Part shown: piece by piece, positions 10,468-46,943 of the stretch | Position numbering within the stretch: position 1 is the stretch's first letter | Layout of the letters: each line of letters begins with the position of its first letter | DNA from: a virus | Lineage: Duplodnaviria; Heunggongvirae; Uroviricota; Caudoviricetes | Length of the DNA: 51,515 nucleotides | Strand: one strand, 5' to 3' | IMG/VR virus record: IMGVR_UViG_2681813321_000027 | The notes under the pieces: generated by a model | What the model was told of the DNA's origin: nothing | Databases searched by the model: none | The model's input: the letters and a program-made list of their open reading frames with translations, nothing else | Made by a program: the position numbers and the translations under genes

Positions 10468-11514
10468 TCAGGATGTGGGCTGGGTATCTAACAGTGCGTA
10501 AGGGTTAAAGCGGATCACCTCTTCGCCAAGCCAGTCATTGATGTGCTTCATGGCCTCCATGACGGGCATCAGCTCGTTAATTGCGTAAACCCGCGCGGCC
10601 TTCTCCACATCACCAAACGCACTTTTTTCACCCGGCATCGCCCCCATAAGTTGCGGCGGAACGCGGTGCGCAGCCAGCACATCATCACGGGATGCCGCCT
10701 TAACATTCATGAACTCATCCTTTGCGGTGATCTGCTGGAACGGCAAAATTTGCACCCCCTCTTTGCCCCCGTTGGGCGCATGAATGAGCACGTTTTTAAA
10801 CGCACCGCCACCACGTGCACCCTGTAGCGTTTCTTTCAGGGAGTCCATGCTTTCGCGGTTTACCTGCGCTGCACCGATGTAGATGATGCACCCGGCGTGG
10901 GATCCGTTGTCGTAATACAGTTTTCTGAACATGTCCGCCGAATGAGACAGGCTGGCCGAGAGTAATGCGCCGAGATATTCCGGCATGCCGTAGATTTCCT
11001 GGTTAATGTCAGGATTCATCAGGTGGCACACTTTGCCAGGGCGAAACTGGAACGCATCCTTGCCATCCTGCACATACCACCATGATTCAAGATCGCTACC
11101 GCGTCGCATGTATTTCGCCAGGGCGTGCCGTAATTTAAGCGGTTCGCCGAGCATATTGCTTCGAAGCTCAAGGAATGCGTTACCGAACACAAACCAGTCC
11201 AGCGCCAGCGCCGAGAAATCCTGCCGGGAAAGCAGCGGGTGCGGGATGTAGCAACCGAGTAATACATTGCGCTTAAAGTAAAGCGCAGACTGATGCCAGG
11301 ACGTTTGCCGGGCAGCTCTTGCCAGACCGTACCAGTCCACCGGGGTTTCATACCACCGCCCGTTATCAGCACAGTACATATTGTCCAGCAGGTCATGCCC
11401 GGTCAGGCGATAAGGACCATCAAATGTGAATGCACTGAGCGACGATTCTTTCCTGAGCGCATCAGCGAGATCAATGCGTGAACTCATGCGCACTTTTTTA
11501 TTTTTTCTGCTCAT
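10468..11514 (-). CDS. Q: portal protein (P2 gpQ family)
   Basis: 348 aa; size and position match P2 Q; ATGA overlap with P. Confidence 0.85.
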   Translation of the reverse strand: MSRKNKKVRMSSRIDLADALRKESSLSAFTFDGPYRLTGHDLLDNMYCADNGRWYETPVDWYGLARAARQTSWHQSALYFKRNVLLGCYIPHPLLSRQDFSALALDWFVFGNAFLELRSNMLGEPLKLRHALAKYMRRGSDLESWWYVQDGKDAFQFRPGKVCHLMNPDINQEIYGMPEYLGALLSASLSHSADMFRKLYYDNGSHAGCIIYIGAAQVNRESMDSLKETLQGARGGGAFKNVLIHAPNGGKEGVQILPFQQITAKDEFMNVKAASRDDVLAAHRVPPQLMGAMPGEKSAFGDVEKAARVYAINELMPVMEAMKHINDWLGEEVIRFNPYALLDTQPTS

Positions 11515-13229
11515 CAGAACTCCATAACCGTGAAACGCTCGTTTTCTCCTTCGCCGCCAATCGGTTCGTTAATGACAGCAAGCATGGTTGCCCACGCAAG
11601 GTCGCCGTGGCTGATCCCCCTCGCGCGGTCCGTTTCGTAAGTGATAAAGCCGCCCGGTGTTTTCACCTTACGCACGGCGTTAAAGGCCGCGACCAGCTCG
11701 CGTTCGGCGCGATCGTATTCCCACCGCCCGGCACGCATTATTTGCAGCATTTTCAGTACCAGCGACCGTTTTGATGACAGCGTGAAGGTGTACGGAATAG
11801 CAGCAGGGAAAAACCGTTTCACTATCTGATAAACAGCCTCCCCGTTCCCGCCCGTCACATCAATGCCGATGTGTTCCACGTTGTAGCGATACGTGAACTC
11901 TTCAATGACTCTGGCCTGTTCTTCAAACTCCAGCCCCTGAACGCGTCTCGTCTCCACCGTTCGAAAACGGCCACCAGGAACAGCCGGAGGAACCACCACG
12001 GACACAGCGCCGCTGTCGCCGTTGCCACTGCTGCCGTTTGCGTCATACCCAATCCATACCGGACGATTCCCCATCGGGCGGGGAGCAAAAGGTTTCCAGT
12101 CTTTCCAGTCGTCGTATCCGTCAACACCGCAGCCAATCAGGATATTCAGGTTAAATGCCGATTCCCCTTCGCGGACAAACTCACACATATAGAGATTGAG
12201 GAACTCGTCTTCGGTGTTTTCATCACGAATTTCGTCGATATCGGTGTGTTTCCAGCCGTGATTAACCACATCTTCCAGCGTGACAATTTGCCGCCACGTC
12301 CGGTCAGGGCAGATAAGCCCGTTATGCAGCGTTTTCCAGTCCACAGAAAAACGCTGGCGTTTATGCGAGGCCTTTTTCTCGTTCCAGCGGTCGCCGTTCC
12401 AGTAGGCGTATGCCTCGTGCGTTTCGGTGGATGGCGTGGAGAAGTAGGTGCGTCGCAGCCCGCTGAGGGTTGCCATAGCGCCAGCCACCTTGCGCAGTTC
12501 AGCAAAGCGACTGACCCAGAAAAATTCATCAAAATAAAAATTGCCCGTATAGGACTGTGCCGTCGCAGCAGAAGTACCGAGAAAATGCAGTTCTGCGCCG
12601 TTGGAGAGGATGATTTTATCGCCCCCTTTCAGCTCCACATCAACTTCAGCCGCGGCCTTCTGAATAATGCTTTTAAACTGGAACGCCTGACGACGCGACG
12701 CAGACAAAAAAATCTGGTTACGCTGGTAAGGTTGTGCCACATCGTCACGCAGCGCCATCAGCAGTGCTTCCTGTGCAAAATACCAGGTCGCCCCAATCTG
12801 TCGGGATTTCAGGATCATCCTGTTACGTATCCCGGCTTCACTGCAAAGGGTCAGGGAGTCAAACCAGCCCCGCTGATGCCACTCCAGCCTGCTGATGATT
12901 TTTTCCCGCAGTGCGGCAATCTGTTCCGGCGTGAAATGATTTTTGAGTTTTTTCGCCCGGCCTTTCTTTCCTGCGGCCGTCACATCCGGCTGGCCATCAT
13001 GCAGCTTTTTAAGCTGCCGGGTCAGCAGGTCTATTTCCTTAAAGTCACCACCTGTTTTATTCTGTTTTTCAGTAAGCTGGATGAGACGCGCATCGATGGA
13101 CTGCGTGACACGCTGCACGGGTGGCGTTTCATCCCACTGGTCGCGTTTTTTCCACGCATAAATCGTGTTCGGGTTTATTCCCATCAGACGTGATATTTCT
13201 GCGGGCGGATAACCCTGCCAGTAAAGTTG
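11514..13229 (-). pseudogene. P: terminase ATPase subunit gpP, 5'-truncated at junction J1
   Basis: matches full P copies from about residue 13 onward; upstream part of the 605-aa track ORF is antisense A sequence. Confidence 0.7.
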
Positions 13230-13231
13230 AC
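13229..13231. other. junction J1: P 5' region / orphan A / internal A (= 6240)
   Basis: ...gtaaagttg + a + ccgcaaaaaactg...; compared with intact copies at 20220 and 6240. Confidence 0.85.
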
Positions 13232-14821
13232 CGCAAAAAACTGAACCGCGACGGCCTGCGCTGGTATGGCATCCGCACGGTGGAGCCTCACCATGACGGC
13301 ACTGTGCACTGGCATATGATGGTCTTTGCACATCCGGACGAGATTGAAACCATCGTGTCCCACGTCTGCGATATTGCCATTCAGGAGGGCCGCCACGAGC
13401 TGGGCGATGACATAACTCCGCGTTTTAAGGCGGAGTATGTCGACGGCTCAAAAGGCACACCAACCAGCTACATCGCCACCTACATCGGAAAGAACCTGGA
13501 CAGCCGCGCCGTGGATGGCATCGACCCGAAAACGGGCAAGCCACGCGTTGACCACGAAACCGGAAAATCAATGGCCGAGAGCGTGGAGCGCGCCATCGGC
13601 TGGGCGCGCCTTCACCGGGTCCGTCAGTTCCAGTTCTTTGGCATCCCCTCCCGTCAGGTGTGGCGTGAACTGCGCCGCCTTGCCAGCCAGATGGCACGCA
13701 ATCCGGAAGGCCCGCAACGGCTGAAAGATGATGCAATGGATGCGGTACTCGCTGCCGCCGATGCCGGGTGTTTTGCCACCTACATTGAAAAACAGGGTGG
13801 CGTGCTTGTTCCACGCAAGGACTACCTGATTCGCACCGCCTACGACCTCGCAGATGAGCTGAACGATTACGGCGAACAGAGCGTACAGATTTACGGGATC
13901 TGGTCACCACTCATCGGGGAATCCTCCCGTGTGTGCACGCATCCGGATAACTGGAAGCTGGTAAGACGTAAACCAGAACCGGAAGACAACGCCCACGAAA
14001 ATGGTTTTGACCTTCAGGGCGGCCCTGCCGCCCCTTGGACTCGTGGCAATAACTGTCCCCGTGTACAGGAAACGGACGACAACGGGACAGAACAGCCGGA
14101 AGAACGGCCAGCACCGTGGCCGCAGCTCCCTGACGGCGTTGAAGTGAACGAATGGATGCGCTCACTGAAACGGCACGAACGCCGGGCGCTGATGCGTTCG
14201 CTTCGTGACAAACAGGCAAAAAACAGCAGTGATGAAATGCAGAGCTGGACACAGAGCCGCAAACAGCAGCGGCCTTTGCCTGATAACCACGAATTACTCG
14301 CTAAAGAATGGCGGGAGTCTGCTGAATCTCTCGGCCTGCATATCGGTGAACAGCAGATGCAGCACCTGTTACGGGGCGGCAGCCTGTACGTTGACGGCAG
14401 CATCATTGCACCGCAGGGATTTGAAATTGTACGCAAACCGGATACCCGACCGGACAGCCGGATCACGCAGCTCTGGCAGCGCCTGAGCCGTAACCACGGC
14501 GTAAGCAGTACGGAGATCCGCCATAACCCGGTCGCCAGCTATCTGGAACAGCTGGGGGCATCAGACCCCGAAGCCGCCGCACGCCTGGCATCCACACTTC
14601 AGCAGGACCAGAACACCATGAAAACACCCGTTACCGTGCTTTCTGACATGCTGCGCGCCATCCGCGACGCAGAGCACGCACAGAGAATCAGTGAAACCAC
14701 TGAACGCGCCCGCCGCAAAGCAGACCTGCTGCGGGGTAGCCTGACCAGTGGAAACAAAAAACAGACAGAAAAGGGATTCACAAATCCCGTAAATGAGCAA
14801 AAAACGCGCCGCGATATATGA
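13231..14821 (+). pseudogene. A: 3' fragment of A (about residues 412-940), no start
   Basis: identical to 6240-7830. Confidence 0.8.
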
Positions 14822-14897
14822 AGCGCGCATAAAACAGGCAAAAACGGGATTTCAGAATCCCGTAAACGATTAATTAATCAACATAAGGAAAAGCGAC

Positions 14898-15857
14898 ATG
14901 AAAATTTGTATCGATGACGGCTCCACCAACATCAAGCTGGCATGGACTGAGAAGGGCGAACGCCGCAACGCCATCAGCCCAAACAGCTTCAAGTCGGAAT
15001 GGTCTGCGCCGTTCGGTGGCACGCAGCCCGCGAACTACATGCTTGATGGCGTGCGCTATGGTTTTGATCCGGTCAGCGATCGCTTTGTCCAGACGACCGA
15101 CACGCAATACCAGTACAGCGATGTGAATGTCATTGCCATTCATCACGCGCTGGTCAAATCAGGCATCACACCACAGGAAGTGGATGTGGTTGTCACCCTG
15201 CCACTGAGCGAATATTTCGACACAAACGCACAGCCGGACATGGCCAACATCAATCGCAAAAAAGCAAACGTCATGCGCCCGGTGGCGTACCAGAACGGAA
15301 AAGCATTCACTATCCGTAACGTACGGGTTATGCCTGAATCCATTCCGGCTGGTTTTAAAGCACTGGCTGACATGAGTCCGTTTGAATCCCTGCTGATTGT
15401 GGATTTAGGCGGAACCACGCTGGATGTGGCAAAGGTTCAGGGACAACTGGCAGGTATCAGCCAGGTGTTTTGCGATCCACACGTAGGCGTTTCCCTGATG
15501 GCCGATGCCGTACTGTCGGTGATGGCCACTAACGGTATGCGTACCAGTCACCACATCGCCAATACCATTATCGAACATCGCCATGATGAAGCCTGGCTGC
15601 GCCAGCACATCCACAATGACGCGCATTACGCCAGCCTGATGGCGGTTATTCGTGAAAAGGAAGAAACACTGAAACAACGCGTGTTCCGCGCGCTGGCGGG
15701 TTTTTCGGGTTACGGGCGGGTGATGGTTGTCGGTGGCGGGGCGGAGATTGTGGCACCCGCTATCCGCGAAGCCTGCGGAGTTAATGCGACTTTCATCGCG
15801 GACGGGGTGCCACAGTTTGCTCTGGTTAATGGGCTGTACGCAATGGACAAGGAGTAA
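14898..15857 (+). CDS. parM: ParM-like ATPase, copy 2
   Basis: identical protein, offset +6991. Confidence 0.8.
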   Translation: MKICIDDGSTNIKLAWTEKGERRNAISPNSFKSEWSAPFGGTQPANYMLDGVRYGFDPVSDRFVQTTDTQYQYSDVNVIAIHHALVKSGITPQEVDVVVTLPLSEYFDTNAQPDMANINRKKANVMRPVAYQNGKAFTIRNVRVMPESIPAGFKALADMSPFESLLIVDLGGTTLDVAKVQGQLAGISQVFCDPHVGVSLMADAVLSVMATNGMRTSHHIANTIIEHRHDEAWLRQHIHNDAHYASLMAVIREKEETLKQRVFRALAGFSGYGRVMVVGGGAEIVAPAIREACGVNATFIADGVPQFALVNGLYAMDKE

Positions 15858-15861
15858 ACCA

Positions 15862-16173
15862 ATGACGACACCAACCAGACGGATAAGTTTCTATCTGAAG
15901 CCCGCCGCCGTCAAGAACGAAGGCGAAGCATGCGCCTGGCTGGACAGCCTTACACCAGAAGCCCGCAAAAGTGGTCAACGCGTGGCTTTTCTGGCCGGGC
16001 TGGCACTACTGAAAATGAATCCGGCAGAGGCTTACCGACTGGCTGCATGGGCTGATGATGAGGCGTTATCAGTGACACAAACCAGGACAGAACGCCCCGC
16101 GTCACAGCCAGTACCAACCGCACAGATAACCAGTCAGATGGCCGGAAATATCCGGGCGTTATTTCCCGAATAA
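15862..16173 (+). CDS. parR: ParR-like, copy 2
   Basis: offset +6991. Confidence 0.5.
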   Translation: MTTPTRRISFYLKPAAVKNEGEACAWLDSLTPEARKSGQRVAFLAGLALLKMNPAEAYRLAAWADDEALSVTQTRTERPASQPVPTAQITSQMAGNIRALFPE

Positions 16174-16236
16174 CACAACATCAGGGCGCATCCGCCCTGA
16201 TGACTTTAACCCGGGAGCATAAACAAGGGGGACACA

Positions 16237-16569
16237 ATGCAATACATTGACAGAGAAAAAGCGCAGCGACTGATTGAGCGGATGGAAGCGCTGGCGAAAG
16301 AAGAAAATGTCAACATCCAAAAAATAGCTGAATGTGGCCAGATAGTTCTTCGTCGTGAAAAAGACCTCAAACAACTGATGTCTGGCGAAACCAGCAAAAC
16401 ATGGACTTCAGGCGAGAAGACGGTTTATTGCAGTTTCTGCAATAAATCCCAGTACGAAGTCACAAAGGTGATTGCCGGACCGTCTGTTTACATCTGCAAT
16501 GAGTGTGTGGATTTGTGCAATGAAATTATCAGGAAAGAAGTGACAGACAAAAAGGAAAAAAACGCATGA
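16237..16569 (+). CDS. ClpX ZBD homolog, copy 2
   Basis: offset +6991. Confidence 0.7.
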
Positions 16570-16973
16570 ACAGAAAACAGAAACAAGAGTTGAAATACTT
16601 CTTACGTAAAGAAATTGCCAGGCTTGAAGATGCAGAGTCACAATCATCAGAAATTCCGTTCGGAATGGATATCAACGACGCCCGTATGCTTCAGGCATAC
16701 CGTATAGCTCAGGCTGCACTACAGACAAAACCGTTAAATAACATACATGAAAAGTATGATTATTTTACGGATACCGCTTGCTTGCTGACATCTGAAGAAC
16801 AAAAGATAGCCCAACTTTTAGGCGACGCATGGAACCTGTATTTAACATTGCCAGTTGAGCATCCAATGGGTAGAGATGAATTTTGCCGGGCAATTCATCA
16901 TTGCCAAAATATGGTGTTGGCACGCCCGGCCATCAGGGCGCTGGCCAGGAAGGGGCAAGGCTATAAAAGATAA
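16566..16973 (+). CDS. hypothetical 135-aa protein, copy 2
   Basis: offset +6991. Confidence 0.5.
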
Positions 16974-17458
16974 GTAAAACGCCCTCCTCCAGGGCGTTTA
17001 TTTCAATGCACAATAGTGCACAAATTTGCACAATTTTTTTGAACGACTGTTTACCCTTCCAGCCCGTATAGCGGCTGGATCCGTCAAGGATCCGTGCGTG
17101 CACAAAAAAACGCGCTTTTTCTGCGCGCAGGTGACGGGGGAACAGCCCGCGTTTCAGGGGGTAAATAGCATTCCCTGAACGATGTCGCAGAGACACAACA
17201 GAATGGCTGTATTTCTCACTCTGAGCGTGAAAAATACGTGAGGGATTCTGATTTGATGGGGTGAAAGGTAAGGCCGTCAAAATCGCACTGAGGCGGCGAA
17301 GAACATGCAGTCAACGCGGTGGGATTGCGTAAGAGTCTGACTGTCGATGATGGCAATCAGCAGGAAAGCGTCGTGAAATTATCTGACTGATACAGGAGCT
17401 GGAGAGTCGGGGCATAAATTTTTTATGCCCCGGCGAAGCAGCAGACAAGCGAAGCGCG

Positions 17459-18505
17459 TCAGGATGTGGGCTGGGTGTCTAACAGTGCGTAAGGGTTAAA
17501 GCGGATCACCTCTTCGCCAAGCCAGTCATTGATGTGCTTCATGGCCTCCATGACGGGCATCAGCTCGTTAATTGCGTAAACCCGCGCGGCCTTCTCCACA
17601 TCACCAAACGCACTTTTTTCACCCGGCATCGCCCCCATAAGTTGCGGCGGAACGCGGTGCGCAGCCAGCACATCATCACGGGATGCCGCCTTAACATTCA
17701 TGAACTCATCCTTTGCGGTGATCTGCTGGAACGGCAAAATTTGCACCCCCTCTTTGCCCCCGTTGGGCGCATGAATGAGCACGTTTTTAAACGCACCGCC
17801 ACCACGTGCACCCTGTAGCGTTTCTTTCAGGGAGTCCATGCTTTCGCGGTTTACCTGCGCTGCACCGATGTAGATGATGCACCCGGCGTGGGATCCGTTG
17901 TCGTAATACAGTTTTCTGAACATGTCCGCCGAATGAGACAGGCTGGCCGAGAGTAATGCGCCGAGATATTCCGGCATGCCGTAGATTTCCTGGTTAATGT
18001 CAGGATTCATCAGGTGGCACACTTTGCCAGGGCGAAACTGGAACGCATCCTTGCCATCCTGCACATACCACCATGATTCAAGATCGCTACCGCGTCGCAT
18101 GTATTTCGCCAGGGCGTGCCGTAATTTAAGCGGTTCGCCGAGCATATTGCTTCGAAGCTCAAGGAATGCGTTACCGAACACAAACCAGTCCAGCGCCAGC
18201 GCCGAGAAATCCTGCCGGGAAAGCAGCGGGTGCGGGATGTAGCAACCGAGTAATACATTGCGCTTAAAGTAAAGCGCAGACTGATGCCAGGACGTTTGCC
18301 GGGCAGCTCTTGCCAGACCGTACCAGTCCACCGGGGTTTCATACCACCGCCCGTTATCAGCACAGTACATATTGTCCAGCAGGTCATGCCCGGTCAGGCG
18401 ATAAGGACCATCAAATGTGAATGCACTGAGCGACGATTCTTTCCTGAGCGCATCAGCGAGATCAATGCGTGAACTCATGCGCACTTTTTTATTTTTTCTG
18501 CTCAT
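17459..18505 (-). CDS. Q: portal gpQ, copy 2
   Basis: identical protein. Confidence 0.85.
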   Translation of the reverse strand: MSRKNKKVRMSSRIDLADALRKESSLSAFTFDGPYRLTGHDLLDNMYCADNGRWYETPVDWYGLARAARQTSWHQSALYFKRNVLLGCYIPHPLLSRQDFSALALDWFVFGNAFLELRSNMLGEPLKLRHALAKYMRRGSDLESWWYVQDGKDAFQFRPGKVCHLMNPDINQEIYGMPEYLGALLSASLSHSADMFRKLYYDNGSHAGCIIYIGAAQVNRESMDSLKETLQGARGGGAFKNVLIHAPNGGKEGVQILPFQQITAKDEFMNVKAASRDDVLAAHRVPPQLMGAMPGEKSAFGDVEKAARVYAINELMPVMEAMKHINDWLGEEVIRFNPYALLDTQPTS

Positions 18506-20256
18506 CAGAACTCCATAACCGTGAAACGCTCGTTTTCTCCTTCGCCGCCAATCGGTTCGTTAATGACAGCAAGCATGGTTGCCCACGCAAGGTCGCCGTG
18601 GCTGATCCCCCTCGCGCGGTCCGTTTCGTAAGTGATAAAGCCGCCCGGTGTTTTCACCTTACGCACGGCGTTAAAGGCCGCGACCAGCTCGCGTTCGGCG
18701 CGATCGTATTCCCACCGCCCGGCACGCATTATTTGCAGCATTTTCAGTACCAGCGACCGTTTTGATGACAGCGTGAAGGTGTACGGAATAGCAGCAGGGA
18801 AAAACCGTTTCACTATCTGATAAACAGCCTCCCCGTTCCCGCCCGTCACATCAATGCCGATGTGTTCCACGTTGTAGCGATACGTGAACTCTTCAATGAC
18901 TCTGGCCTGTTCTTCAAACTCCAGCCCCTGAACGCGTCTCGTCTCCACCGTTCGAAAACGGCCACCAGGAACAGCCGGAGGAACCACCACGGACACAGCG
19001 CCGCTGTCGCCGTTGCCACTGCTGCCGTTTGCGTCATACCCAATCCATACCGGACGATTCCCCATCGGGCGGGGAGCAAAAGGTTTCCAGTCTTTCCAGT
19101 CGTCGTATCCGTCAACACCGCAGCCAATCAGGATATTCAGGTTAAATGCCGATTCCCCTTCGCGGACAAACTCACACATATAGAGATTGAGGAACTCGTC
19201 TTCGGTGTTTTCATCACGAATTTCGTCGATATCGGTGTGTTTCCAGCCGTGATTAACCACATCTTCCAGCGTGACAATTTGCCGCCACGTCCGGTCAGGG
19301 CAGATAAGCCCGTTATGCAGCGTTTTCCAGTCCACAGAAAAACGCTGGCGTTTATGCGAGGCCTTTTTCTCGTTCCAGCGGTCGCCGTTCCAGTAGGCGT
19401 ATGCCTCGTGCGTTTCGGTGGATGGCGTGGAGAAGTAGGTGCGTCGCAGCCCGCTGAGGGTTGCCATAGCGCCAGCCACCTTGCGCAGTTCAGCAAAGCG
19501 ACTGACCCAGAAAAATTCATCAAAATAAAAATTGCCCGTATAGGACTGTGCCGTCGCAGCAGAAGTACCGAGAAAATGCAGTTCTGCGCCGTTGGAGAGG
19601 ATGATTTTATCGCCCCCTTTCAGCTCCACATCAACTTCAGCCGCGGCCTTCTGAATAATGCTTTTAAACTGGAACGCCTGACGACGCGACGCAGACAAAA
19701 AAATCTGGTTACGCTGGTAAGGTTGTGCCACATCGTCACGCAGCGCCATCAGCAGTGCTTCCTGTGCAAAATACCAGGTCGCCCCAATCTGTCGGGATTT
19801 CAGGATCATCCTGTTACGTATCCCGGCTTCACTGCAAAGGGTCAGGGAGTCAAACCAGCCCCGCTGATGCCACTCCAGCCTGCTGATGATTTTTTCCCGC
19901 AGTGCGGCAATCTGTTCCGGCGTGAAATGATTTTTGAGTTTTTTCGCCCGGCCTTTCTTTCCTGCGGCCGTCACATCCGGCTGGCCATCATGCAGCTTTT
20001 TAAGCTGCCGGGTCAGCAGGTCTATTTCCTTAAAGTCACCACCTGTTTTATTCTGTTTTTCAGTAAGCTGGATGAGACGCGCATCGATGGACTGCGTGAC
20101 ACGCTGCACGGGTGGCGTTTCATCCCACTGGTCGCGTTTTTTCCACGCATAAATCGTGTTCGGGTTTATTCCCATCAGACGTGATATTTCTGCGGGCGGA
20201 TAACCCTGCCAGTAAAGTTGTCGCGCACGCTGGCGTACAAAAGCGTCCTGAATCAT
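18505..20256 (-). CDS. P: terminase ATPase subunit gpP (full length, 583 aa)
   Basis: large conserved ORF divergent from O, overlapping Q start. Confidence 0.85.
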   Translation of the reverse strand: MIQDAFVRQRARQLYWQGYPPAEISRLMGINPNTIYAWKKRDQWDETPPVQRVTQSIDARLIQLTEKQNKTGGDFKEIDLLTRQLKKLHDGQPDVTAAGKKGRAKKLKNHFTPEQIAALREKIISRLEWHQRGWFDSLTLCSEAGIRNRMILKSRQIGATWYFAQEALLMALRDDVAQPYQRNQIFLSASRRQAFQFKSIIQKAAAEVDVELKGGDKIILSNGAELHFLGTSAATAQSYTGNFYFDEFFWVSRFAELRKVAGAMATLSGLRRTYFSTPSTETHEAYAYWNGDRWNEKKASHKRQRFSVDWKTLHNGLICPDRTWRQIVTLEDVVNHGWKHTDIDEIRDENTEDEFLNLYMCEFVREGESAFNLNILIGCGVDGYDDWKDWKPFAPRPMGNRPVWIGYDANGSSGNGDSGAVSVVVPPAVPGGRFRTVETRRVQGLEFEEQARVIEEFTYRYNVEHIGIDVTGGNGEAVYQIVKRFFPAAIPYTFTLSSKRSLVLKMLQIMRAGRWEYDRAERELVAAFNAVRKVKTPGGFITYETDRARGISHGDLAWATMLAVINEPIGGEGENERFTVMEF

Positions 20257-20410
20257 TGCTCCCCCTGAGTAATTACAGGAAGATTACCCGCGCGCGAAAC
20301 CGTTCTCCTTAACCCCCTGTTCTGGCCGTTTTCTTACAACAAAAGCCCTTTGTATCAGCCTGTTACGCTTTGCCATCATGACTGAAGAACCAGTCAGAGG
20401 GGCAAAAACT
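20257..20410. promoter_or_regulatory. divergent late promoter region (P leftward, O rightward)
   Basis: 154-bp gap between divergent P and O; TGT...ACA dyad candidates; copies at 28773-28926 and 36658-36811. Confidence 0.4.
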
Positions 20411-21247: not shown

Positions 21248-21270
21248 TAAGACAAAGGAGCAAATTTTTT

Positions 21271-22323: not shown

Positions 22324-22368
22324 TCAACTCACGGCGGGCATCATGCCCGCCTGTAACGGAGAGAAAAA

Positions 22369-37648: not shown

Positions 37649-37671
37649 TAAGACAAAGGAGCAAATTTTTT

Positions 37672-38724
37672 ATGAATCTGGTGATGTCAGATATTACCCG
37701 CAACAAGCTGGGTTGCTATATGGCGCAGCAGGCGTCGCTTAACAATATCCCGGTTTCCGCACTGGTATCGCGATTTACCGTGGAACCCTCGGTACAGCAG
37801 CGTTTTGAAAACGCCTCAAAGGAAAGCACCGAATTTACAAAAAGAATTAACGTGATCGGCGTGACCGACCAGAAAGGCGAAAAAATCCTCCTGGACACCA
37901 CCGGGCCAATTGCACGCACGAATACCAGTTATGACGGCACAAAACGCCGTAACCCGAATAACGTGGTTGATCTGAAAAACCGCAAATACCAGTGCGAACA
38001 GGTGAACTACGACACGTTTATTTCATATCCGCAGCTTGATGCCTGGGCGGCACATCCTGATTTTCAGTCCCGCATCAGCGCACAGATTGCCCGACAGGTG
38101 GCGCTTGACCGCATCATGATCGGTTTCAACGGCACGTCTCACGCGGATGAGTCCAACTTCAGCACCAACAAGCTGCTTCAGGACGTTAACGTGGGCTGGC
38201 TGGAGCACATCAGAACCGACGCCAGCGAGCGCGTTATGAATGACGTAACGCTGACCTCCCGCAACATGGACAACACCGTGGCGCACGCGGGTAAGTATGC
38301 GAACGCTGATGCACTGGTACAGGACGCACGCTCATCCCTGCTGGATGAATGGCACAAGGAAGCTGACGACCTCGTGGTGATTATGGGGCGCAACCTGTTT
38401 AACTCGCTGCGTCTGCCCGTGCTGAACAGTATCAGCGGCCAGAATCCCAATGCGGAATTACTTGCCGGGCAGCTCATCCTGTCATCGCGCACCATTGGCG
38501 GGCTGGGCGTGTTCCTTGCGCCGTTCTTCCCGGATGCAACGATGCTGATCACCTCGTTCAACAACCTGTCGATTTACTGGCAGAAAGGTTCAATGCGTCG
38601 TCTGATGAAAGACGAACCGGAATACAACCGCATCGCCACCTACCAGTCCATCAATGACGCTTATGTCGTTGAAGACTATGGCAAGTGCGCGATGGTCACT
38701 GGCCTGAAGTTCGCCGACAGCTAA
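37672..38724 (+). CDS. N: major capsid gpN, copy 3
   Basis: identical. Confidence 0.9.
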   Translation: MNLVMSDITRNKLGCYMAQQASLNNIPVSALVSRFTVEPSVQQRFENASKESTEFTKRINVIGVTDQKGEKILLDTTGPIARTNTSYDGTKRRNPNNVVDLKNRKYQCEQVNYDTFISYPQLDAWAAHPDFQSRISAQIARQVALDRIMIGFNGTSHADESNFSTNKLLQDVNVGWLEHIRTDASERVMNDVTLTSRNMDNTVAHAGKYANADALVQDARSSLLDEWHKEADDLVVIMGRNLFNSLRLPVLNSISGQNPNAELLAGQLILSSRTIGGLGVFLAPFFPDATMLITSFNNLSIYWQKGSMRRLMKDEPEYNRIATYQSINDAYVVEDYGKCAMVTGLKFADS

Positions 38725-38769
38725 TCAACTCACGGCGGGCATCATGCCCGCCTGTAACGGAGAGAAAAA

Positions 38770-39570
38770 ATGATTACTCCTGCACAGCAACACTGGCAGA
38801 ACGTGATGGCACAGCGCGCAGGCCGGGCGAATGAAGGCGTGGACCACGCCGCGCGTACCGCGCATGAAGAGGTGCTGTATCGTCTGCGTCTGGCACAGGC
38901 CCGGCTTAAGGGCGTACAGGCCAGAAGCGCGAAAGCCGCCATCAAAAAAGAGTTATTGCCGGACTTTTCCGGCTGGATTGAGGGAACGCTGGAGGCTGAC
39001 GGCGGGCAGCAGGATGAAGTGATTGCCACGCTGATGGTGTGGGCGATTGACTGCGGCGATCTTCCGCTGGCGCTGCGTATTGGTGCATATGTGGTCCGTC
39101 ACAACCTCATCATGCCGGATAACTTTGGCCGTACTGCTGCCACGGTACTGACCGAAGAAATCTGTAATCCGGTACTGACGCAGGCCGGGACGGATGCCGA
39201 CGCGGATTTGTCCGCCTTTATCGAACCACTGGACACCCTCCGGGAGATTGTCACCGACCAGGACATGCCGGACGAAGTGCGCGCCAAATTATGCAAAGCG
39301 TGCGCCTTTGCCCGCCGTGGCCTGACCGATGCGGACAGCATGGCCTCATCACTGAAGCTGCTGCGCGAAGCGATGCACCTGAACCCGAACGCAGGTGTGA
39401 AACGCGAGATTGCAACCCTTTCCCGCGCCCTGAAAAAAGCCGATTCCGCAGCCGCACCAGAAGATGCCAGCACACCGCAGGCGCAGGACGAAAGCAGCAA
39501 AAGTAAAAAGACAACGCGCAAGCCTGCAACACGAAAAACCACCGCGACGCAGAAGGCGAAGCGCGGTTAA
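38770..39570 (+). CDS. M: terminase small subunit (P2 gpM family), full length
   Basis: 266 aa; RBS ggagag; basic KKTTRKPATRKTT C-terminus; position O-N-M-L. Confidence 0.8.
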   Translation: MITPAQQHWQNVMAQRAGRANEGVDHAARTAHEEVLYRLRLAQARLKGVQARSAKAAIKKELLPDFSGWIEGTLEADGGQQDEVIATLMVWAIDCGDLPLALRIGAYVVRHNLIMPDNFGRTAATVLTEEICNPVLTQAGTDADADLSAFIEPLDTLREIVTDQDMPDEVRAKLCKACAFARRGLTDADSMASSLKLLREAMHLNPNAGVKREIATLSRALKKADSAAAPEDASTPQAQDESSKSKKTTRKPATRKTTATQKAKRG

Positions 39571-39585
39571 CGACTGACCCCGTCA

Positions 39586-39658
39586 GCGGGCGGCGTGCGC
39601 GGTGTTCCGGTTTGACTCCGTGACCGTTTACACCGCGCACCCACCGCCCGATTTTTTC
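39586..39658 (+). terminator. long-stem hairpin plus T-run after M
   Basis: gggcggcgtgcgcggtg ... caccgcgcacccaccgccc inverted repeat followed by gattttttc. Confidence 0.45.
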
Positions 39659-39671
39659 AGGAGTGAACCCC

Positions 39672-40166
39672 ATGAGTATGGTTGCCAGAACCAACCCCGG
39701 ACCCGCAGAGGACGACATCACCGATACCGATGATGGTGATACCCGTATTTCAGCGGGCGCATTCTGGCCGGATATTGTGCTGCGTGAGCTGCGTCTGGCG
39801 ATACGACTGCCGGGCCGTGTAACCACCTCCCGCCTGCTGCATACCGCCACCGGGGCCGTGGCACACGTTACCCGCGAGCTGAAAGCGTGGCAGCAGGAAC
39901 AGCAGGCGGCTGGCCATCAGACGCTGTCCGATGTTCCGGCACCCGTAATTAACGGAGAAAGCGTCAATCTCTGGCACTGGCGCAATGCCGTTTATACCGC
40001 CACACGCGCCCTGATTCTGGAGCGTTACCGCGATGCGGACACAACGGATAAGGGCGACCGCCGGGCGGACGCACTGGATATACAGACATCGGATTTGTGG
40101 CGCGATGTGAGCTGGGCCATCTCTGACATTCTGTGCCGCCCGCGAATCTTTGCGGAGTTGTGCTGA
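39672..40166 (+). CDS. L: head completion/stabilisation protein (P2 gpL family)
   Basis: 164 aa from ATG 39672 with aggag RBS; DLWRDVxWAI C-terminal motif as in P2 L. Confidence 0.8.
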   Translation: MSMVARTNPGPAEDDITDTDDGDTRISAGAFWPDIVLRELRLAIRLPGRVTTSRLLHTATGAVAHVTRELKAWQQEQQAAGHQTLSDVPAPVINGESVNLWHWRNAVYTATRALILERYRDADTTDKGDRRADALDIQTSDLWRDVSWAISDILCRPRIFAELC

Positions 40167-40366
40167 TGAAAGTGAAGGCACTGGAAGGCGACACCGTGGA
40201 TTCGCTCTGTTTCCGGTACTACGGCACGACGCAGGGCGTCACCGAAAAGGTGCTGGATGCCAACCCCGGACTCTGTCAGCAGGTATTTCTGGACGCCGGG
40301 CAGGAAGTGGAGATGCCGGAGCCGGAGAAGAAGAAACGAGAAATGATTCAGTTGTGGGGGGAGTAG
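40166..40366 (+). CDS. X: tail protein X (P2 gpX family)
   Basis: 66 aa; LxGDTxDxxCxRYYG and NPGL motifs match P2 gpX. Confidence 0.8.
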   Translation: MKVKALEGDTVDSLCFRYYGTTQGVTEKVLDANPGLCQQVFLDAGQEVEMPEPEKKKREMIQLWGE

Positions 40367-40368
40367 CA

Positions 40369-40692
40369 GTGAGCACCATTCAAACAGGGATCACAGAGCA
40401 GGTTATTGCGTGGCTCTTTGACCACCTGCCAACGGTGTATGCAGTAGGCGCGGCGGTCAGCATTTCCGCGCTGATGAGTCTTTATGACGGACGAACACTG
40501 GTTCAGACCGTAACGGGATCGCTGGCGTGCGGCGTTCTTGCCATGGCCGTGGCCGGGTCGTTGCGCTTCTTCGGTTTTCCTGAAGATGCCGTGACGTTTA
40601 TCGGCGCATCAATCGGTTTTATGGGGGCAGAGAAAGCACGCGACAAGGTTATTGCGGCCTTTAATCGCAGGGTGAAGGAGAAAGACGAATGA
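40369..40692 (+). CDS. holin (putative)
   Basis: 107 aa from GTG 40369 with gggggag RBS; 2-3 hydrophobic helices, charged C-terminus; just upstream of endolysin. Confidence 0.6.
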   Translation: MSTIQTGITEQVIAWLFDHLPTVYAVGAAVSISALMSLYDGRTLVQTVTGSLACGVLAMAVAGSLRFFGFPEDAVTFIGASIGFMGAEKARDKVIAAFNRRVKEKDE

Positions 40693-41081
40693 GCAACACA
40701 TTTAAATTCAGCAGCCGGAGCGAAAAGAATTTGCAGGGCGTAAATCCTGATCTGGTGAAAGTGACCCGACGGGCACTGGAAATCTCGGAAGTGGATTTTG
40801 GTATCACCGAAGGGTTGCGCAGCCGTTACCGCCAGAAGCAACTTGTGGCCACGGGTAAGAGCCAGACCATGAACAGCCGCCACCTTACGGGGCATGCCGT
40901 GGATGTTGTGGCTTATATCGGCAGCCAGGTGTCATGGGAATGGCCGCTGTACGAAAAAATCGCAGCAGCATTCAGACAGGCCAGCCGGGAACTGAATATT
41001 CCGGTGGAATGGGGCGGCGACTGGAAGACCCTGAAAGACGGACCGCATTTTCAGTTACCACACGGAGCCTGTCCGGCATGA
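40689..41081 (+). CDS. endolysin, peptidase M15 (L-alanyl-D-glutamate peptidase-like)
   Basis: 130 aa; SRHLxGHAVDV zinc-binding signature; sits between holin and spanins. Confidence 0.7.
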   Translation: MSNTFKFSSRSEKNLQGVNPDLVKVTRRALEISEVDFGITEGLRSRYRQKQLVATGKSQTMNSRHLTGHAVDVVAYIGSQVSWEWPLYEKIAAAFRQASRELNIPVEWGGDWKTLKDGPHFQLPHGACPA

Positions 41082-41485
41082 AGCTCTGGCCCACGCTGGG
41101 TGTCGCTTTCCTTCTGATTGCCGCATGGGGAACATCCATGCGTCTGTCATGGTCGCTGGGCCGGGAGAACGCCAGAAACGAAGCACAGGCCAGCACCCTG
41201 AAAAGTACCGCCGACACCCTGAATATTATCAGCGCTGGGGTACAGGATATGCAGCAGGTGCTGGCGCAACTCCGCGTGGAAAATCAGCAACGCAATCAGG
41301 ACGGAGAGGTAAGACGTGAACAGCTACGCAACGATATTGCAAAAGATGAATGCGCCCACGCTTTGCCTGACGCTCGTTTTACTGACAGGCTGCGCAGGCA
41401 CGCAGAACGCGCCACGGCCAGCGCCGTCAGTCCGGCTTATACCGCAGACGCTGACCATACCGGTAACGCCTCCCCCCTTCCCTGA
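41078..41485 (+). CDS. i-spanin (Rz/LysB-like)
   Basis: 135 aa; N-terminal TM LWPTLGVAFLLIAAWG then coiled-coil-like charged region; ATGA overlap with endolysin stop. Confidence 0.6.
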   Translation: MKLWPTLGVAFLLIAAWGTSMRLSWSLGRENARNEAQASTLKSTADTLNIISAGVQDMQQVLAQLRVENQQRNQDGEVRREQLRNDIAKDECAHALPDARFTDRLRRHAERATASAVSPAYTADADHTGNASPLP

Positions 41486-41636
41486 TACTCCCACATGGGG
41501 AAATCTCGGTATATGGGGCGACCGCCTTCTGGATGCACTGGAAACCTGTAACGCGGATAAACGGGCCATTGAATTACTGGAACAGCGCAGGCTGCAACGA
41601 CTGAACAACGAGGATAACAACCATGCTGAAAACTGA
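41346..41636 (+). CDS. o-spanin lipoprotein (Rz1/LysC-like)
   Basis: lipobox LLTGC, proline-rich; starts inside i-spanin in another frame and extends past it. Confidence 0.55.
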   Translation: MNAPTLCLTLVLLTGCAGTQNAPRPAPSVRLIPQTLTIPVTPPPFPDTPTWGNLGIWGDRLLDALETCNADKRAIELLEQRRLQRLNNEDNNHAEN

Positions 41637-42090
41637 TTCCCTGCGTGAAGCCATGACCCGTTCATGCCGATGGTGTCAGGCCAACCCGGAAAAATTCACC
41701 ATTTTCGTGGAGAGCGGCAACATTGAAACGACCGGAGAAACCCCATCGTTTGTTTACCGCTATCAGATGGTGATGTTTGTCATGGATTACGCCGGGGAGC
41801 TGGACGACCTCACGCTGCCGCTGCTGGCGTGGTTATCCAAAAATCAGCCACAGTTGTTGCTCAACCCTGAGCGTAATCAGGACATCAAATTCTCCGCCGT
41901 TATTAATGACGATGACAGCGCCGATCTCCTGTTTACGCTCCCCCTGCGGGAACGCGTTCGCATCACGCGCAGCAGTCAGGGCACACCGCAGGCAGAACAC
42001 CTGCCGGAGCCAAAACCCCGCCTGCCATCTTCCGAAGGCGACTGGTCGCATGTATTCCAGGATGTGACGTGGGGTGAAAGCGATGGATAA
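41623..42090 (+). CDS. R: tail completion protein (P2 gpR family)
   Basis: 155 aa; MLKxDSLR N-terminus and length match P2 gpR. Confidence 0.8.
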   Translation: MLKTDSLREAMTRSCRWCQANPEKFTIFVESGNIETTGETPSFVYRYQMVMFVMDYAGELDDLTLPLLAWLSKNQPQLLLNPERNQDIKFSAVINDDDSADLLFTLPLRERVRITRSSQGTPQAEHLPEPKPRLPSSEGDWSHVFQDVTWGESDG

Positions 42091-42718
42091 GGCATTCACC
42101 CGCGTGGATGAAACCTTTGAGGCCATCCGCGACAGCCTGAATCAGCAGGCCATCAATAACATCGCCAGAAAGCTGGCACAGAATTTACGCCGCGCCCAGC
42201 AGGCGCGTATCCGGTCACAGAAAGCGCCGGACGGGACCGCGTGGACACCACGCAGACGCCGCGTAACCCGGATACAGGAACGCATTCGCTTTATCTGGAA
42301 TAACGAAGCACGCACGCTGAAAAACTGGCATCACGACACGGGGAAATACGGGCGAACCATCACCGGGTGGGATGAGGATAAAAACAACATCCGCACGTTT
42401 TACCGGGATGACATCGACCGCTTTCTGGAAATACGCACCCGGCGCATCAACCAGGACAGCACAAAGCGCGTCCCCATGTTCGTAAAACTGCGCACCGCCC
42501 GCTACCTGAAAGCCCGTGCGGATACTTCCGGTGTGACGGTGGGTTACAGCGGCGTGGCTGCACGTATTGCACGCGTTCATCAGTTCGGTGAGCGCGATCA
42601 GGTTGCGCCGGGCATTTTCACCGATTACCCGGTACGTGAGCTGTTGGGCATCAGTCAGGCAGATGAACGCCTGATTTATAACACGGTGCTGGGCCGGATT
42701 GCGGAGGCTGTACGGTGA
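42083..42718 (+). CDS. S: tail completion protein (P2 gpS family, putative)
   Basis: ATG 42083 overlaps R stop; assignment by synteny. Confidence 0.6.
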   Translation: MDKAFTRVDETFEAIRDSLNQQAINNIARKLAQNLRRAQQARIRSQKAPDGTAWTPRRRRVTRIQERIRFIWNNEARTLKNWHHDTGKYGRTITGWDEDKNNIRTFYRDDIDRFLEIRTRRINQDSTKRVPMFVKLRTARYLKARADTSGVTVGYSGVAARIARVHQFGERDQVAPGIFTDYPVRELLGISQADERLIYNTVLGRIAEAVR

Positions 42719-43296
42719 GCGCAGAACTCATGCGACTGCTGAGCAATATCATCCGCACCGGGATCATCTCTGAAGTTGATGAGAAGTCCTGGCGCGTGCG
42801 CGTTCGCAGCGGCGAACTGGAGACAGGCTGGTTGCGCTGGAACACCACGCGCGCGGGAGCCTTCAATGTGTGGCTGCCGCCATCACCAGGCGAACAGGTG
42901 GTAATTGCCTGCATTGGCGGCAACCCGGAAACCGCCATGATAATTGGCAGCCTGTGGAGTGATGCCAATCCGGCCCCCGGCAAAAGCCTGAAAGAAATCG
43001 TGATCAGCGCGCCGGACGGCGCGGTGTTCCGCTACGACGCGGACGCAGGCGCACTGAGCGCCAGCGGCATGAAAACGGCCACTTTACAGGCATCCGTCAG
43101 CGTGACACTGGACACGCCCGTCGTGGAATGCACAAACCTTCTGAGAACGGCGACGCTTGACGTCACAAAAGGGGGAAAGATGAGCGGCAATATCACGCAC
43201 AGCGGCGGCGATTTCACCTCAAACGGCATTACCGTGCATACGCATAAACACGGTGGCGTGAAAGGCGGCAGCGATTCGACAGGAGGCCCGCATTGA
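42715..43296 (+). CDS. V: baseplate spike/assembly protein (P2 gpV family)
   Basis: 193 aa, GTG start overlapping S stop; position before W. Confidence 0.75.
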   Translation: MSAELMRLLSNIIRTGIISEVDEKSWRVRVRSGELETGWLRWNTTRAGAFNVWLPPSPGEQVVIACIGGNPETAMIIGSLWSDANPAPGKSLKEIVISAPDGAVFRYDADAGALSASGMKTATLQASVSVTLDTPVVECTNLLRTATLDVTKGGKMSGNITHSGGDFTSNGITVHTHKHGGVKGGSDSTGGPH

Positions 43297-43643
43297 CAAC
43301 CCGCTACACAGGAATGAATCCGGACGGGACGGGAAACCTGAACGATATGGAGCACCTGAAACAGTCAGTCAGGGATATCCTGACCACCCCGCTGGCAAGC
43401 CGGGTTATGCGACGGGAATATGGCAGCCTTGTGCCTGATTTGATTGACGAACCCATGAATAACACCACGCGTCTGCAATGCATGAGTGCTGCCGTGATTG
43501 CGCTGACACGATGGGAACCCCGCATTGCCCTGGATGCCATCGACGTTGTCTGGAAAGCGGGAGGCCGCGCCGGGGTGACGCTGTCGGGCACTGTCATGCA
43601 GACCATGCAGAATGTTGAGTTAACCATCACGCTGAGGGAGTAA
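43293..43643 (+). CDS. W: baseplate protein (P2 gpW family)
   Basis: 116 aa, TTG start with aggagg RBS. Confidence 0.75.
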   Translation: MTTRYTGMNPDGTGNLNDMEHLKQSVRDILTTPLASRVMRREYGSLVPDLIDEPMNNTTRLQCMSAAVIALTRWEPRIALDAIDVVWKAGGRAGVTLSGTVMQTMQNVELTITLRE

Positions 43644-43646
43644 ATC

Positions 43647-44543
43647 ATGCCCGCCGTTGACCTTTCCCAATTACCGGAACCCGCCATCATCGCGGAGCCT
43701 GACTTTGAGGCAATTCTGGCTGACACAAAGGCCATGATGATTGCGGCTTATCCCGCCGAACAGCGTGAAGCCGTCTCCGCCGCGCTGGAGCTGGAATCGG
43801 AACCCCTGAACGTTATCGCCCAGACAACAGCGTTTCGTGAAATGCTGTTACGCCAGCGGGTCAATGAGGGGGCACGCGCCTGCATGTTAAGCCACAGCGC
43901 CGGGACAGACCTGGACAACCTCGCGGGCAATATGAACACAAAGCGCCTGACCATCACTCCGGCAACGGATACCACCGACGCAGTGATGGAAAGTGACACC
44001 TCGCTGAGACTGCGGGCGCAGCGGGCGTACGATGGCCTGAGTGTTGCTGGCCCGTCAGGTGCATACGAGTATTTTGCCCGCAGCGCCAGCGGTCTGGTGC
44101 GTGATGCGCGGGCTATCAGTCCGTCTCCGGCAAATGTGACGGTTTCCATCCTGTCCACTGAAGGCGACGGCACAGCAACGGAGGCGTTGCTTAATACCGT
44201 TCGCGCCGTTCTGAATGCAGAGGATACCCGCCCGGTGGCCGACCGCCTGACCGTACAGAGTGCCAGAATCGTGACATGGCGGCTGAATGCAAAACTGTAC
44301 TTTTACCCCGGCCCGGAATCCGAACCTATTCTGGCCGCGGCGGAATCGTCATTCAGGAAGTGGCTGGCTGAACAGGGGCTTATCGGTCAGGACGTGGCGT
44401 TGTCCGCCATTGCTGCCGCACTGCATGTGCACGGTGTGCAACGCGTGGAGATAATCGAACCCACACAGAATATGGCCATCAGCGACATACAGGCGGCGCG
44501 CTGTGAGTCATTCACCATCAGCGAAGGTGGACGCAATGAGTAA
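43647..44543 (+). CDS. J: baseplate protein (P2 gpJ family)
   Basis: 298 aa; size and order match P2 J. Confidence 0.8.
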   Translation: MPAVDLSQLPEPAIIAEPDFEAILADTKAMMIAAYPAEQREAVSAALELESEPLNVIAQTTAFREMLLRQRVNEGARACMLSHSAGTDLDNLAGNMNTKRLTITPATDTTDAVMESDTSLRLRAQRAYDGLSVAGPSGAYEYFARSASGLVRDARAISPSPANVTVSILSTEGDGTATEALLNTVRAVLNAEDTRPVADRLTVQSARIVTWRLNAKLYFYPGPESEPILAAAESSFRKWLAEQGLIGQDVALSAIAAALHVHGVQRVEIIEPTQNMAISDIQAARCESFTISEGGRNE

Positions 44544-45144
44544 TTCGTTGTTACCACCATCAGCCAGCAATTTCATGCGTTGTGCCGAAGCCGTCGGAAC
44601 ACGCATTACAGACATTCCGGTGGACCTCAACACGCTGTGGTCGCCGGACACCTGCCCGGTGCATCTGCTGCCTTATCTCGCCTGGGCGTTTTCCGTTGAC
44701 CGCTGGGATCGCAACTGGCCGGAAGAGACAAAGCGACAGGTGATTCGTGATGCATGGCTGATACACCGACACAAAGGGACCATCAGCGCACTGCGAAGAG
44801 CCGTGGAGCCTCTCGGCTACCTGATTGAAGTAAAGGAGTGGTGGCAACTCAACGAGGAGCCAGGAACATTTCGCATTGTTGTCGGAGTACTTGATCAGGG
44901 CATCACCGATGAAATGTATCAGGAACTTGAGCGCCTTATTGCGGATGCAAAACCAGTAAGTCGCCATCTGACGGGGCTGGCGATCAGCCTGAGTGTGAAC
45001 GGAAAGATTTTCGTTGGTACGGGATGCTATCACGGCGATGCCCTGACGGTTTATCCCTACACCCCGGAGTCCATTATTGTCGAAGGGGATTATTTCCCTG
45101 CCCCGGCCATTCATTTAATTGATAATCTGAGAGTAAACGCATGA
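44536..45144 (+). CDS. I: baseplate/tail protein (P2 gpI family)
   Basis: ATG 44536 overlaps J stop; about 202 aa. Confidence 0.7.
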   Translation: MSNSLLPPSASNFMRCAEAVGTRITDIPVDLNTLWSPDTCPVHLLPYLAWAFSVDRWDRNWPEETKRQVIRDAWLIHRHKGTISALRRAVEPLGYLIEVKEWWQLNEEPGTFRIVVGVLDQGITDEMYQELERLIADAKPVSRHLTGLAISLSVNGKIFVGTGCYHGDALTVYPYTPESIIVEGDYFPAPAIHLIDNLRVNA

Positions 45145-46658
45145 CAGTGAAATACTACGCCATTCTGACTAATCAGGGCGCGGCACGACTGGCTAACGCG
45201 ACGATGCTCGGCAGTAAGCTGGATCTGACGCAAATGGCCGTTGGTGATGCAAATGGTGTGTTACCAACACCAGACCCTGCACAAACAAAACTGATTAACC
45301 AGAAACGCATTGCACCGCTGAATCTTCTGAGTGTTGACCCTAACAATCAGAGCCAGATTATTGCGGAGCAAATCATCCCTGAAAACGAGGGAGGATTCTG
45401 GATCCGTGAGATTGGTCTTTATGATGATGAAGGTGTACTCATTGCGGTGGCAAACTGCCCGGAAACGTACAAACCGCAGTTGCAGGAAGGCAGTGGACGC
45501 ACCCAGACTATCCGCATGATTCTGGTTGTCACGAACACCGAAGCCATCACGCTGAAAATCGACCCGTCTGTGGTTCTGGCAACCCGCAAATATGTGGATG
45601 ATAAAATCTCAGAGCACGAACAGTCACGACGTCACCCGGACGCCTCGCTGACCGTAAAAGGTTTTACTCAGTTAAGCAGTGCAATTAACAGTGAATCAGA
45701 AACACTGGCCGCAACACCGAAAGCGGTTAAGGCTGCATATGACCTGGCTAACGAGAAATATACCGCCCAGAACGCCACCACTACACAAAAAGGGATTGTT
45801 CAGCTCAGTAGCGCCACGAACAGCACGTCTGAAACACTGGCAGCGACACCAAAAGCTGTTAAGGCGGTAATGGATGAAACGAACAAGAAAGCACCATTAA
45901 ACAGCCCGGCACTGACCGGAACGCCAACAACACCAACAGCGCCACAGGGGACTAATAGTACCCAGATCGCAAGCACGGCTTTCGTTATGGCCGCGATTGC
46001 CGCACTTGTAGATTCGTCACCTGATGCACTGAACACGCTGAACGAACTGGCTGCGGCGCTGGGCAATGACCCGAATTTTGCGACCACCATGACTAACGCG
46101 CTTGCGGGTAAGCAACCGAAGGATGCCACCCTGACGGCGCTGGCAGAGCTTGCTACATCAGCAGATAAACTCCCATATTTTACAGGGGCAGATCGTGCCG
46201 CGTTAACCGCGTTGACAAGTGTTGGACGTGCCATTCTTGGTAAAACCAGCACTCAGGGAGTTCTTGATTACCTTGGTTTGGGAGAAGGCTCTGCATTACC
46301 GGTTGGGGTGCCTGTTCCGTGGCCTTCAGCCACTCCGCCAACAGGCTGGCTGAAATGCAACGGTGCCGCTTTTTCTGCTGAAGAATACCCGGAACTGGCA
46401 AAGGCTTATCCGACAAATAAATTGCCTGATTTACGCGGTGAGTTTATTAGGGGCTGGGATGACGGGCGTGGTATTGATGCTGTACGTGCCTTGCTAAGTC
46501 TTCAGAATGGAGGAGTGGAATCACACACCCACCAAGGGCAGCTCTTCAGAGTTAGTGATTATCGTACAAAAGAAATACCAGCATCAGAAGTTATGGGAAG
46601 AGGATATATTGCAAGCCTGACGCCGGGTCCTGATAGCCCACTTGATTTTGATGATTAT
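45141..46658 (+). pseudogene. H: tail fiber gpH, first about 506 codons; fused at J4 to the 3' end of S
   Basis: identical to the full H copy up to DFDDY; track ORF 45141-46943 ends with the S C-terminus. Confidence 0.8.
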
Positions 46659-46660
46659 AG
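46658..46660. other. junction J4: H / orphan A / internal S (= 42435)
   Basis: ...gatgattat + a + gcacccggcgcatcaacc... Confidence 0.85.
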
Positions 46661-46943
46661 CACCCGGCGCATCAACCAGGACAGCACAAAGCGCGTCCCC
46701 ATGTTCGTAAAACTGCGCACCGCCCGCTACCTGAAAGCCCGTGCGGATACTTCCGGTGTGACGGTGGGTTACAGCGGCGTGGCTGCACGTATTGCACGCG
46801 TTCATCAGTTCGGTGAGCGCGATCAGGTTGCGCCGGGCATTTTCACCGATTACCCGGTACGTGAGCTGTTGGGCATCAGTCAGGCAGATGAACGCCTGAT
46901 TTATAACACGGTGCTGGGCCGGATTGCGGAGGCTGTACGGTGA
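46660..46943 (+). pseudogene. S: 3' fragment of S
   Basis: identical to 42435-42718. Confidence 0.75.

Follow-up and report, generated by a model that had tools for sequence, protein, structure and literature searches.

The virus record IMGVR_UViG_2681813321_000027 of IMG/VR (Caudoviricetes) is a stretch of 51,515 nt, referred to below as the window, which carries a P2-like prophage. Several of its open reading frames (ORFs) run across points where the phage sequence breaks off and begins again, and so join parts of different genes. With high confidence, these fusion ORFs, four from an initial annotation of the window and a fifth at 13121-14821, are artefacts of a draft assembly, lying in an ordinary P88/P2-like prophage beside pdxB. 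The repeats around the junctions are most likely false duplications and not rearrangements of the element. There is no determined DNA sequence behind any of the fusions.

The four junction bases in the source record

In an exact look-up, the product of one of the fusion ORFs (M::A, described below) was found on a single public contig, NCBI CYBF01000001.1, which is 280,924 nt long and belongs to the E. coli assembly GCA_001285025.1. For comparison with the source, four overlapping loci were fetched from this contig, together spanning the whole window. The window proved to be the final 51,515 nt of the contig (229410-280924), ending within gene G at the contig end, and it is the same as the source save at four positions. 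At 13230, 22560, 31268 and 46659, an N of the contig stands as A in the window. The chromosomal flank, accD-dedA-truA-usg-pdxB, matches E. coli at 100% identity.

Self-alignment of the window yields four discontinuities and five blocks, which look like tandem repeats. The four Ns coincide exactly with these discontinuities: N stands at all four junctions of the source record and at no other place in the 51.5 kb. Moreover, each junction base given as A in the window agrees with neither parent sequence. The junctions are thus single-N joins of separately built blocks, and the A in the window is a substitute for N. They are as follows, each with a placeholder base (N in the record).

J1, 13230: end of block 1, 12 codons into P (minus strand), to the start of block 2, inside A at the equivalent of 6240
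J2, 22560: M codon 64 to A codon 683
J3, 31268: M codon 128 to the intergenic palindrome GATTAATTAATC downstream of A
J4, 46659: H codon 506 to S codon 121/122

With N deposited for the junction bases, none of the fusions has contiguous sequence behind it, and any feature of the window that depends on bases 13230, 22560, 31268 or 46659 is unreliable. Two other origins had been considered for the junctions. Addition of the junction A by dA-tailing, chimeric ligation or a non-templated process was dropped, as the source record has N there. A synthetic or planted rearrangement was rejected because the sequence is that of a deposited NCBI record.

Blocks and repeats

The repeats seen in the self-alignment are given below, each as the first copy and the second.

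6240-13229, again at 13231-20220
14045-22559, again at 22561-31075
23384-31267, again at 31269-39152
42435-46658, again at 46660-50883

The blocks overlap by 4.2-8.5 kb of the same phage sequence, and their concatenation therefore resembles tandem duplication. Blocks 2 to 5 have the following extents.

Block 2, 13231-22559 (9,329 nt): repeat from the 3' part of A through the 5' part of M
Block 3, 22561-31267 (8,707 nt): repeat from the 3' part of A through the middle of M
Block 4, 31269-46658 (15,390 nt): from downstream of A to H codon 506
Block 5, 46660-51515 (4,856 nt): repeat from the 3' part of S through H to partial G, ending at the deposited contig end

The ORFs that cross the junctions

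The initial annotation had listed four ORFs as in-frame fusions across junctions. All four are present with the coordinates and lengths that it gave, and their translations and Pfam content fit its description. A fifth, which crosses J1 and was absent from that list, is obtained under a mechanical ORF rule. The five are composed as follows (aa, amino acids).

11514-13331, minus strand (P::antisense-A), 605 aa: 34 residues without homology (antisense A and the junction codon GGN), then P 13-583
22369-23337, plus strand (M::A), 322 aa: M 1-63, Pro (CCN), then A 683-940 in the frame of A
30885-31274, plus strand (truncated M), 129 aa: M 1-127, Thr (ACN), Asp and a stop
45141-46943, plus strand (H::S), 600 aa: H 1-506, the codon NGC, then S 122-214 in the frame of S
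13121-14821, plus strand (fifth ORF), 566 aa: an antisense-P leader fused in frame to A 412-940

The intact genes that served as reference parents are these.

5008-7830, plus strand: A, replication endonuclease, 940 aa
18505-20256, minus strand: P, large terminase, 583 aa, with more copies at 27021-28772 and 34906-36657
38770-39570, plus strand: M, small terminase, 266 aa
42074-42718, plus strand: S (Phage_tail_S), 214 aa
49366-51000, plus strand: H, tail fibre, 544 aa

Both of the sense-to-sense junctions, M::A and H::S, are in frame. Three of the junction codons (CCN, ACN and GGN) translate whatever the base may be, the fourth being NGC. Frame continuity at every junction, nevertheless, hinges on a gap of exactly 1 nt, and this length is a placeholder, not a measurement. 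Thus, the description of the ORFs as in-frame fusions holds as far as the frame is concerned, while the real DNA junctions that it implied do not stand, these being scaffold or gap joins. The advice that such junction-created chimeras should not be annotated as functional proteins without evidence is upheld by the Ns in the deposited record.

In CYBF01000001.1, these ORFs were called as coding sequences (CDSs), two of them from an internal start. For the P::antisense-A ORF, the deposited CDS is an internal-start form at 11514-13184 with 556 aa (CTT22192.1 / WP_261289330.1, terminase). The M::A ORF was deposited as CTT22460.1, a ‘phage replication protein’, and the truncated M as CTT22674.1, a small terminase. 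Each of these three proteins occurs on one contig only among about 15 billion proteins. The CDS for the fifth ORF lies at 13190-14821 and encodes 543 aa, with an X. H::S was called as a CDS of 600 aa; its exact protein sequence had no match in the protein-collection look-up, probably because the N codon gives an X.

The Pfam domain GPA covers only residues 179-503 of A. The C-terminal 437 aa or so of A match no Pfam family, and this explains the lack of a family hit for the M::A chimera. H::S carries Phage_tail_fib, Fiber_2 and Collar, followed by Phage_tail_S profile positions 57-144. It had been proposed that this fusion replaces the receptor-binding C-terminus of the fibre with the tail of S. 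This was overstated: only the last 38 of the 544 H residues are lost, and the Collar domain is kept. The intact H of 544 aa has identical proteins in many other assemblies, where it stands in a single-copy context.

Uniqueness of the junctions and the sister assembly

Junction-spanning queries of 401 nt were searched against 5,426 complete E. coli genomes, and for each of the four junctions, no genome covers at least 80% of the query. The queries match 1,173-1,405 of these genomes, always over about half of their length and at up to 6 places per genome. In the viral, GTDB-genome and metagenome contig collections, a 30-mer across J2 (M/A) has zero matches.

The same prophage is present at the same pdxB site in a sister assembly of the same accession series, GCA_001285125.1 (CYAN01000002.1). 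The sister prophage is 100% identical to block 1, and A, the parM-like gene, Q, P (583 aa), O, N and M (266 aa) each occur in it once. In the tail region, the sister assembly has a single-N restart of its own: the sequence resumes from a point about 5.7 kb upstream, this time with the invertible tail-fibre segment in the opposite orientation. The artefact therefore recurs in the batch at places of sequence heterogeneity. In the related prophages of other assemblies (seven loci), neither repeated blocks nor fusion ORFs were found.

In the sister contig, the tail-fibre region is present twice (12209-19466). Between the two copies, the H C-terminus and the G chaperone genes are inverted, and the two versions of the fibre are H with 544 aa and H' with 494 aa. 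In relatives, a Resolvase/HTH_7 invertase is encoded just downstream of the tail-fibre region (locus L002, 13090-13689). The region is an invertible host-range segment, with both orientations apparently present in culture. The source contig of the window ends inside this segment (window 51000-51515).

Allele patches in the repeated blocks

The blocks match one another and the sister strain fully, except for clustered private substitutions; block 5 has zero mismatches to the sister strain. The patches are located as follows.

Block 2, 17342-17477 (cos/Q-end region): 7 private substitutions
Block 3, 26308-26605 (in Q): 11 private substitutions, all 11 synonymous
Block 4, 35845-36478 (in P): 9 private substitutions, 8 synonymous and 1 non-synonymous
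Block 4, 41805-42241 and 45754-45836: two smaller patches

For the Q patch of block 3, portal alleles with 100% identity are present in other E. coli prophages. The P patch is 99.8% identical to alleles in the same prophages, for example in CP024278.1, and the variant P protein is also found on an unrelated metagenome contig. The patches are natural alleles from another P2-like lineage and not errors. Sequencing error as the source of the differences between copies was ruled out, the substitutions being clustered, mostly transitions, nearly all synonymous and exact matches to natural alleles.

The first three patch groups each lie 3.7-5.1 kb from the ends of their block, and the order of the patches along the phage (cos, Q, P) tracks the order of blocks 2, 3 and 4. 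The patches imply that a second related prophage or a mixed template was probably present in the sequenced sample.

Block ends and short repeats

At six of the eight block ends (13231, 22559/22561, 31267/31269 and 46660), the block breaks off exactly at a 10-12-nt sequence with another copy in the prophage, direct or inverted. For random positions, 9.9% would be expected, giving a binomial tail of 2e-5; when the two J2 ends are counted once, we estimate the tail at about 1e-4. The repeats at the block ends are these.

one arm of the 11-bp hairpin within gene A
the 10-mer AGTTATTGCC and its reverse complement, either side of J2
a 10-mer in M, repeated 27 nt downstream
a 12-nt palindrome
a 10-mer with another copy in Q

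The flanks of J2 thus form a 10-nt inverted repeat, AGTTATTGCC / GGCAATAACT, and a palindrome made by a junction, GTTATTGCC-N-GGCAATAAC, is also seen among the block ends.

Direct homology between the junction partners was looked for at all four joins, and no bases are shared at any of them, J2 having the inverted 10-mer only. As the block-end repeats are not shared by the partners (save the inverted 10-mer at J2) and none is direct, they could not have mediated recombination. They are read here as a signature of stalled sequence extension, the exact algorithmic cause being unproven. Microhomology-mediated duplication was rejected on account of the lack of direct homology between partners. Likewise, site-specific joining at ori-like sites by the nickase A (HUH) was set aside, as the breakpoints have no common motif.

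Two of the sequences concerned deserve a description of their own. The hairpin in gene A has a perfect 11-bp stem (6225-6250, GTTTTTTGCGG-CGGT-CCGCAAAAAAC), and the 12-nt palindrome GATTAATTAATC lies at 7877-7888, 18 nt upstream of the parM-like gene. Both are possible candidates for regulatory or origin-related sites.

How the joins may have arisen

The product names in the deposited record contain the GFF3 escape ‘%2C’. Such escapes typically occur when Prokka output is passed through GFF3toEMBL, a route used in the pipeline of the Sanger Institute. In the Sanger prokaryote pipeline, Velvet assembly is followed by SSPACE scaffolding and then by 120 iterations of GapFiller, and its authors regard SSPACE and GapFiller as greedy and prone to false joins (PMC5320598, PMC3446322). 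GapFiller extends both edges of a gap by k-mer overlap; closure needs extensions that overlap by at least 10 nt and an insertion that matches the estimated gap size, and gaps stay open where the extension meets equal alternatives (PMC5320598, PMC3446322). The block ends at repeats fit the stalling of extension at ambiguity that the GapFiller paper describes. A literature search on the accession numbers gave nothing relevant. The chain Velvet/SSPACE/GapFiller/Prokka is, therefore, a supported guess; the artefact status itself rests on the Ns, the uniqueness of the junctions, the sister assembly, the patches and the block ends.

A course of events may be proposed along these lines. The strain or sample would have held a second, closely related P2-like sequence, together with the tail-fibre segment in two orientations, and these would have given rise to short variant contigs. 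A paired-read scaffolder may then have chained the variant contigs after the main contig. Subsequently, an iterative k-mer gap filler would have grown the gap edges for several kb in both directions through the shared sequence. The gaps would have stayed unclosed, the inserted length disagreeing with the estimated gap, and one N would have been left at each. Finally, the gene caller would have read across the lone Ns and produced chimeric or truncated CDSs.

The false duplications known from scaffold gaps in SSPACE and GapFiller drafts resemble the window in several respects. They, too, leave residual Ns with the same sequence on both sides, end at ambiguous short repeats and occur in a repeat region (here, related prophages and an invertible segment). 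The duplicated spans of the window (4.2-8.5 kb) are, however, far larger than typical gap-edge duplications.

Weighing the explanations

Several points weigh against the artefact explanation. The case against real junction molecules is indirect, being drawn from assembled sequence, and a single N can be an ambiguous base call instead of a gap. Under its -d rule, GapFiller should normally extend no more than about 50 nt beyond the estimated gap; over-extension by several kb therefore needs mis-estimated gaps or repeated global iterations. The assembler used for the record is deduced from the annotation style and is not documented, and the second P2-like prophage in the same genome is likewise deduced, not observed. 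In addition, the blocks all have direct orientation and follow the order of the phage, which is also what real tandem duplications would show.

This last point leads to the alternative of a real tandem amplification within the prophage, consisting of three nested A-to-M duplications and one S-to-H duplication, with each N being an uncalled base. The patches would then be due to gene conversion by a second resident P2-like prophage, and the fusion ORFs would be real DNA, though probably non-functional. Genuine tandem duplications in bacteria, whether RecA-dependent or microhomology-mediated, do resemble the window in having direct, head-to-tail segments of several kb with joins inside genes, and the copies here are all direct and collinear. 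It also speaks for amplification that both sense-to-sense junctions are in frame, although the chance of this is 1 in 9, and that natural-allele patches could, in principle, be conversion tracts. Genuine duplications, however, have a defined junction, usually with direct (micro)homology or an insertion sequence (IS) element, and their recent copies are identical. The window instead has an undetermined base at each junction, partners without direct homology or microhomology, and patches of foreign alleles in the copies. The only four Ns in 51.5 kb would have to fall exactly on the four discontinuities. Moreover, the identical prophage of the sister strain is single-copy, none of the junctions is found in any other genome searched, and another single-N restart occurs in the same batch. 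The correlation of the block ends with short repeats unrelated to the partners, and the similar distances of the patches from the block ends (3.7-5.1 kb), also argue against it. Real amplification is, therefore, considered highly improbable. Were the repeats real after all, the window would record four successive tandem segmental duplications, with the 3' part of A, parM, cos, Q, P, O and N present four-fold and the baseplate genes two-fold, and M::A and H::S would be genuine, probably inert, chimeric genes.

It has also been considered that the blocks come from several P2-like prophages elsewhere, or from a mixed or contaminated culture, and were misscaffolded without over-extension. The fusions would still be artefacts, each block being the true sequence of another locus. 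Blocks 2-4 do each have a natural allele patch of their own, and E. coli genomes often hold multiple such prophages. Outside the patches, however, blocks 2-4 agree with both block 1 and the sister strain at 100% identity over many kb. Such identity would be unusual for independent prophages, the closest prophages in complete genomes being only about 97% identical, and a short-read assembler would collapse identical stretches and not output them three times. This origin of the blocks is thus very improbable as well, and the preferred explanation remains that of single-N joins between over-extended gap edges.

The underlying prophage

The element beneath the repeats is a P2-like prophage (Peduoviridae; P88 / Xuanwuvirus). 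Over most of its length, it is 96-97% identical to the Escherichia phages P88 and PhiR44_2 and to the Citrobacter phage Shae_phiSM, whose records, unlike the window, have no repeated blocks or fusion ORFs. The gene order is of the P2 type: int, C, cox, A, parM-like cargo, Q, P, O, N, M, L, X, holin, lysin, R, S, V, W, J, I, H and G. The hallmark Pfam families are present, namely GPA, portal, GpP terminase, GPO, P2 capsid, small terminase, GpR/S, V, W, J, I and tail fibre. The int ORF of 339 aa had no match in the exact look-up, probably on account of a different start call.

Between A and cos/Q lies a group of cargo genes (7907-9982), which appears again at 14898, 23414 and 31299. Its four products are a ParM-like actin ATPase of 319 aa, a Plasmid_stab_B protein of 103 aa, a ClpX-type zinc-finger protein of 110 aa and a protein of 135 aa without a Pfam match. 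The cargo of P88 is annotated likewise; an integrating phage here carries a partition cassette of the plasmid type.

Implications

The replacement of N by A in the window made gap placeholders seem like real junction bases. The resulting artefact CDSs now stand in nr, and one of them in RefSeq, under normal functional names (CTT22460.1, CTT22674.1 and CTT22192.1 / WP_261289330.1). Scans for gene fusions, domain shuffling or host-range swaps of tail fibres should, therefore, mask positions that are N in the source. Similarly, repeats that flank a lone N are to be taken as false duplications until reads show otherwise. For the biology of the phage itself, the significance of the fusions is slight, the underlying element being an ordinary P88-like prophage.

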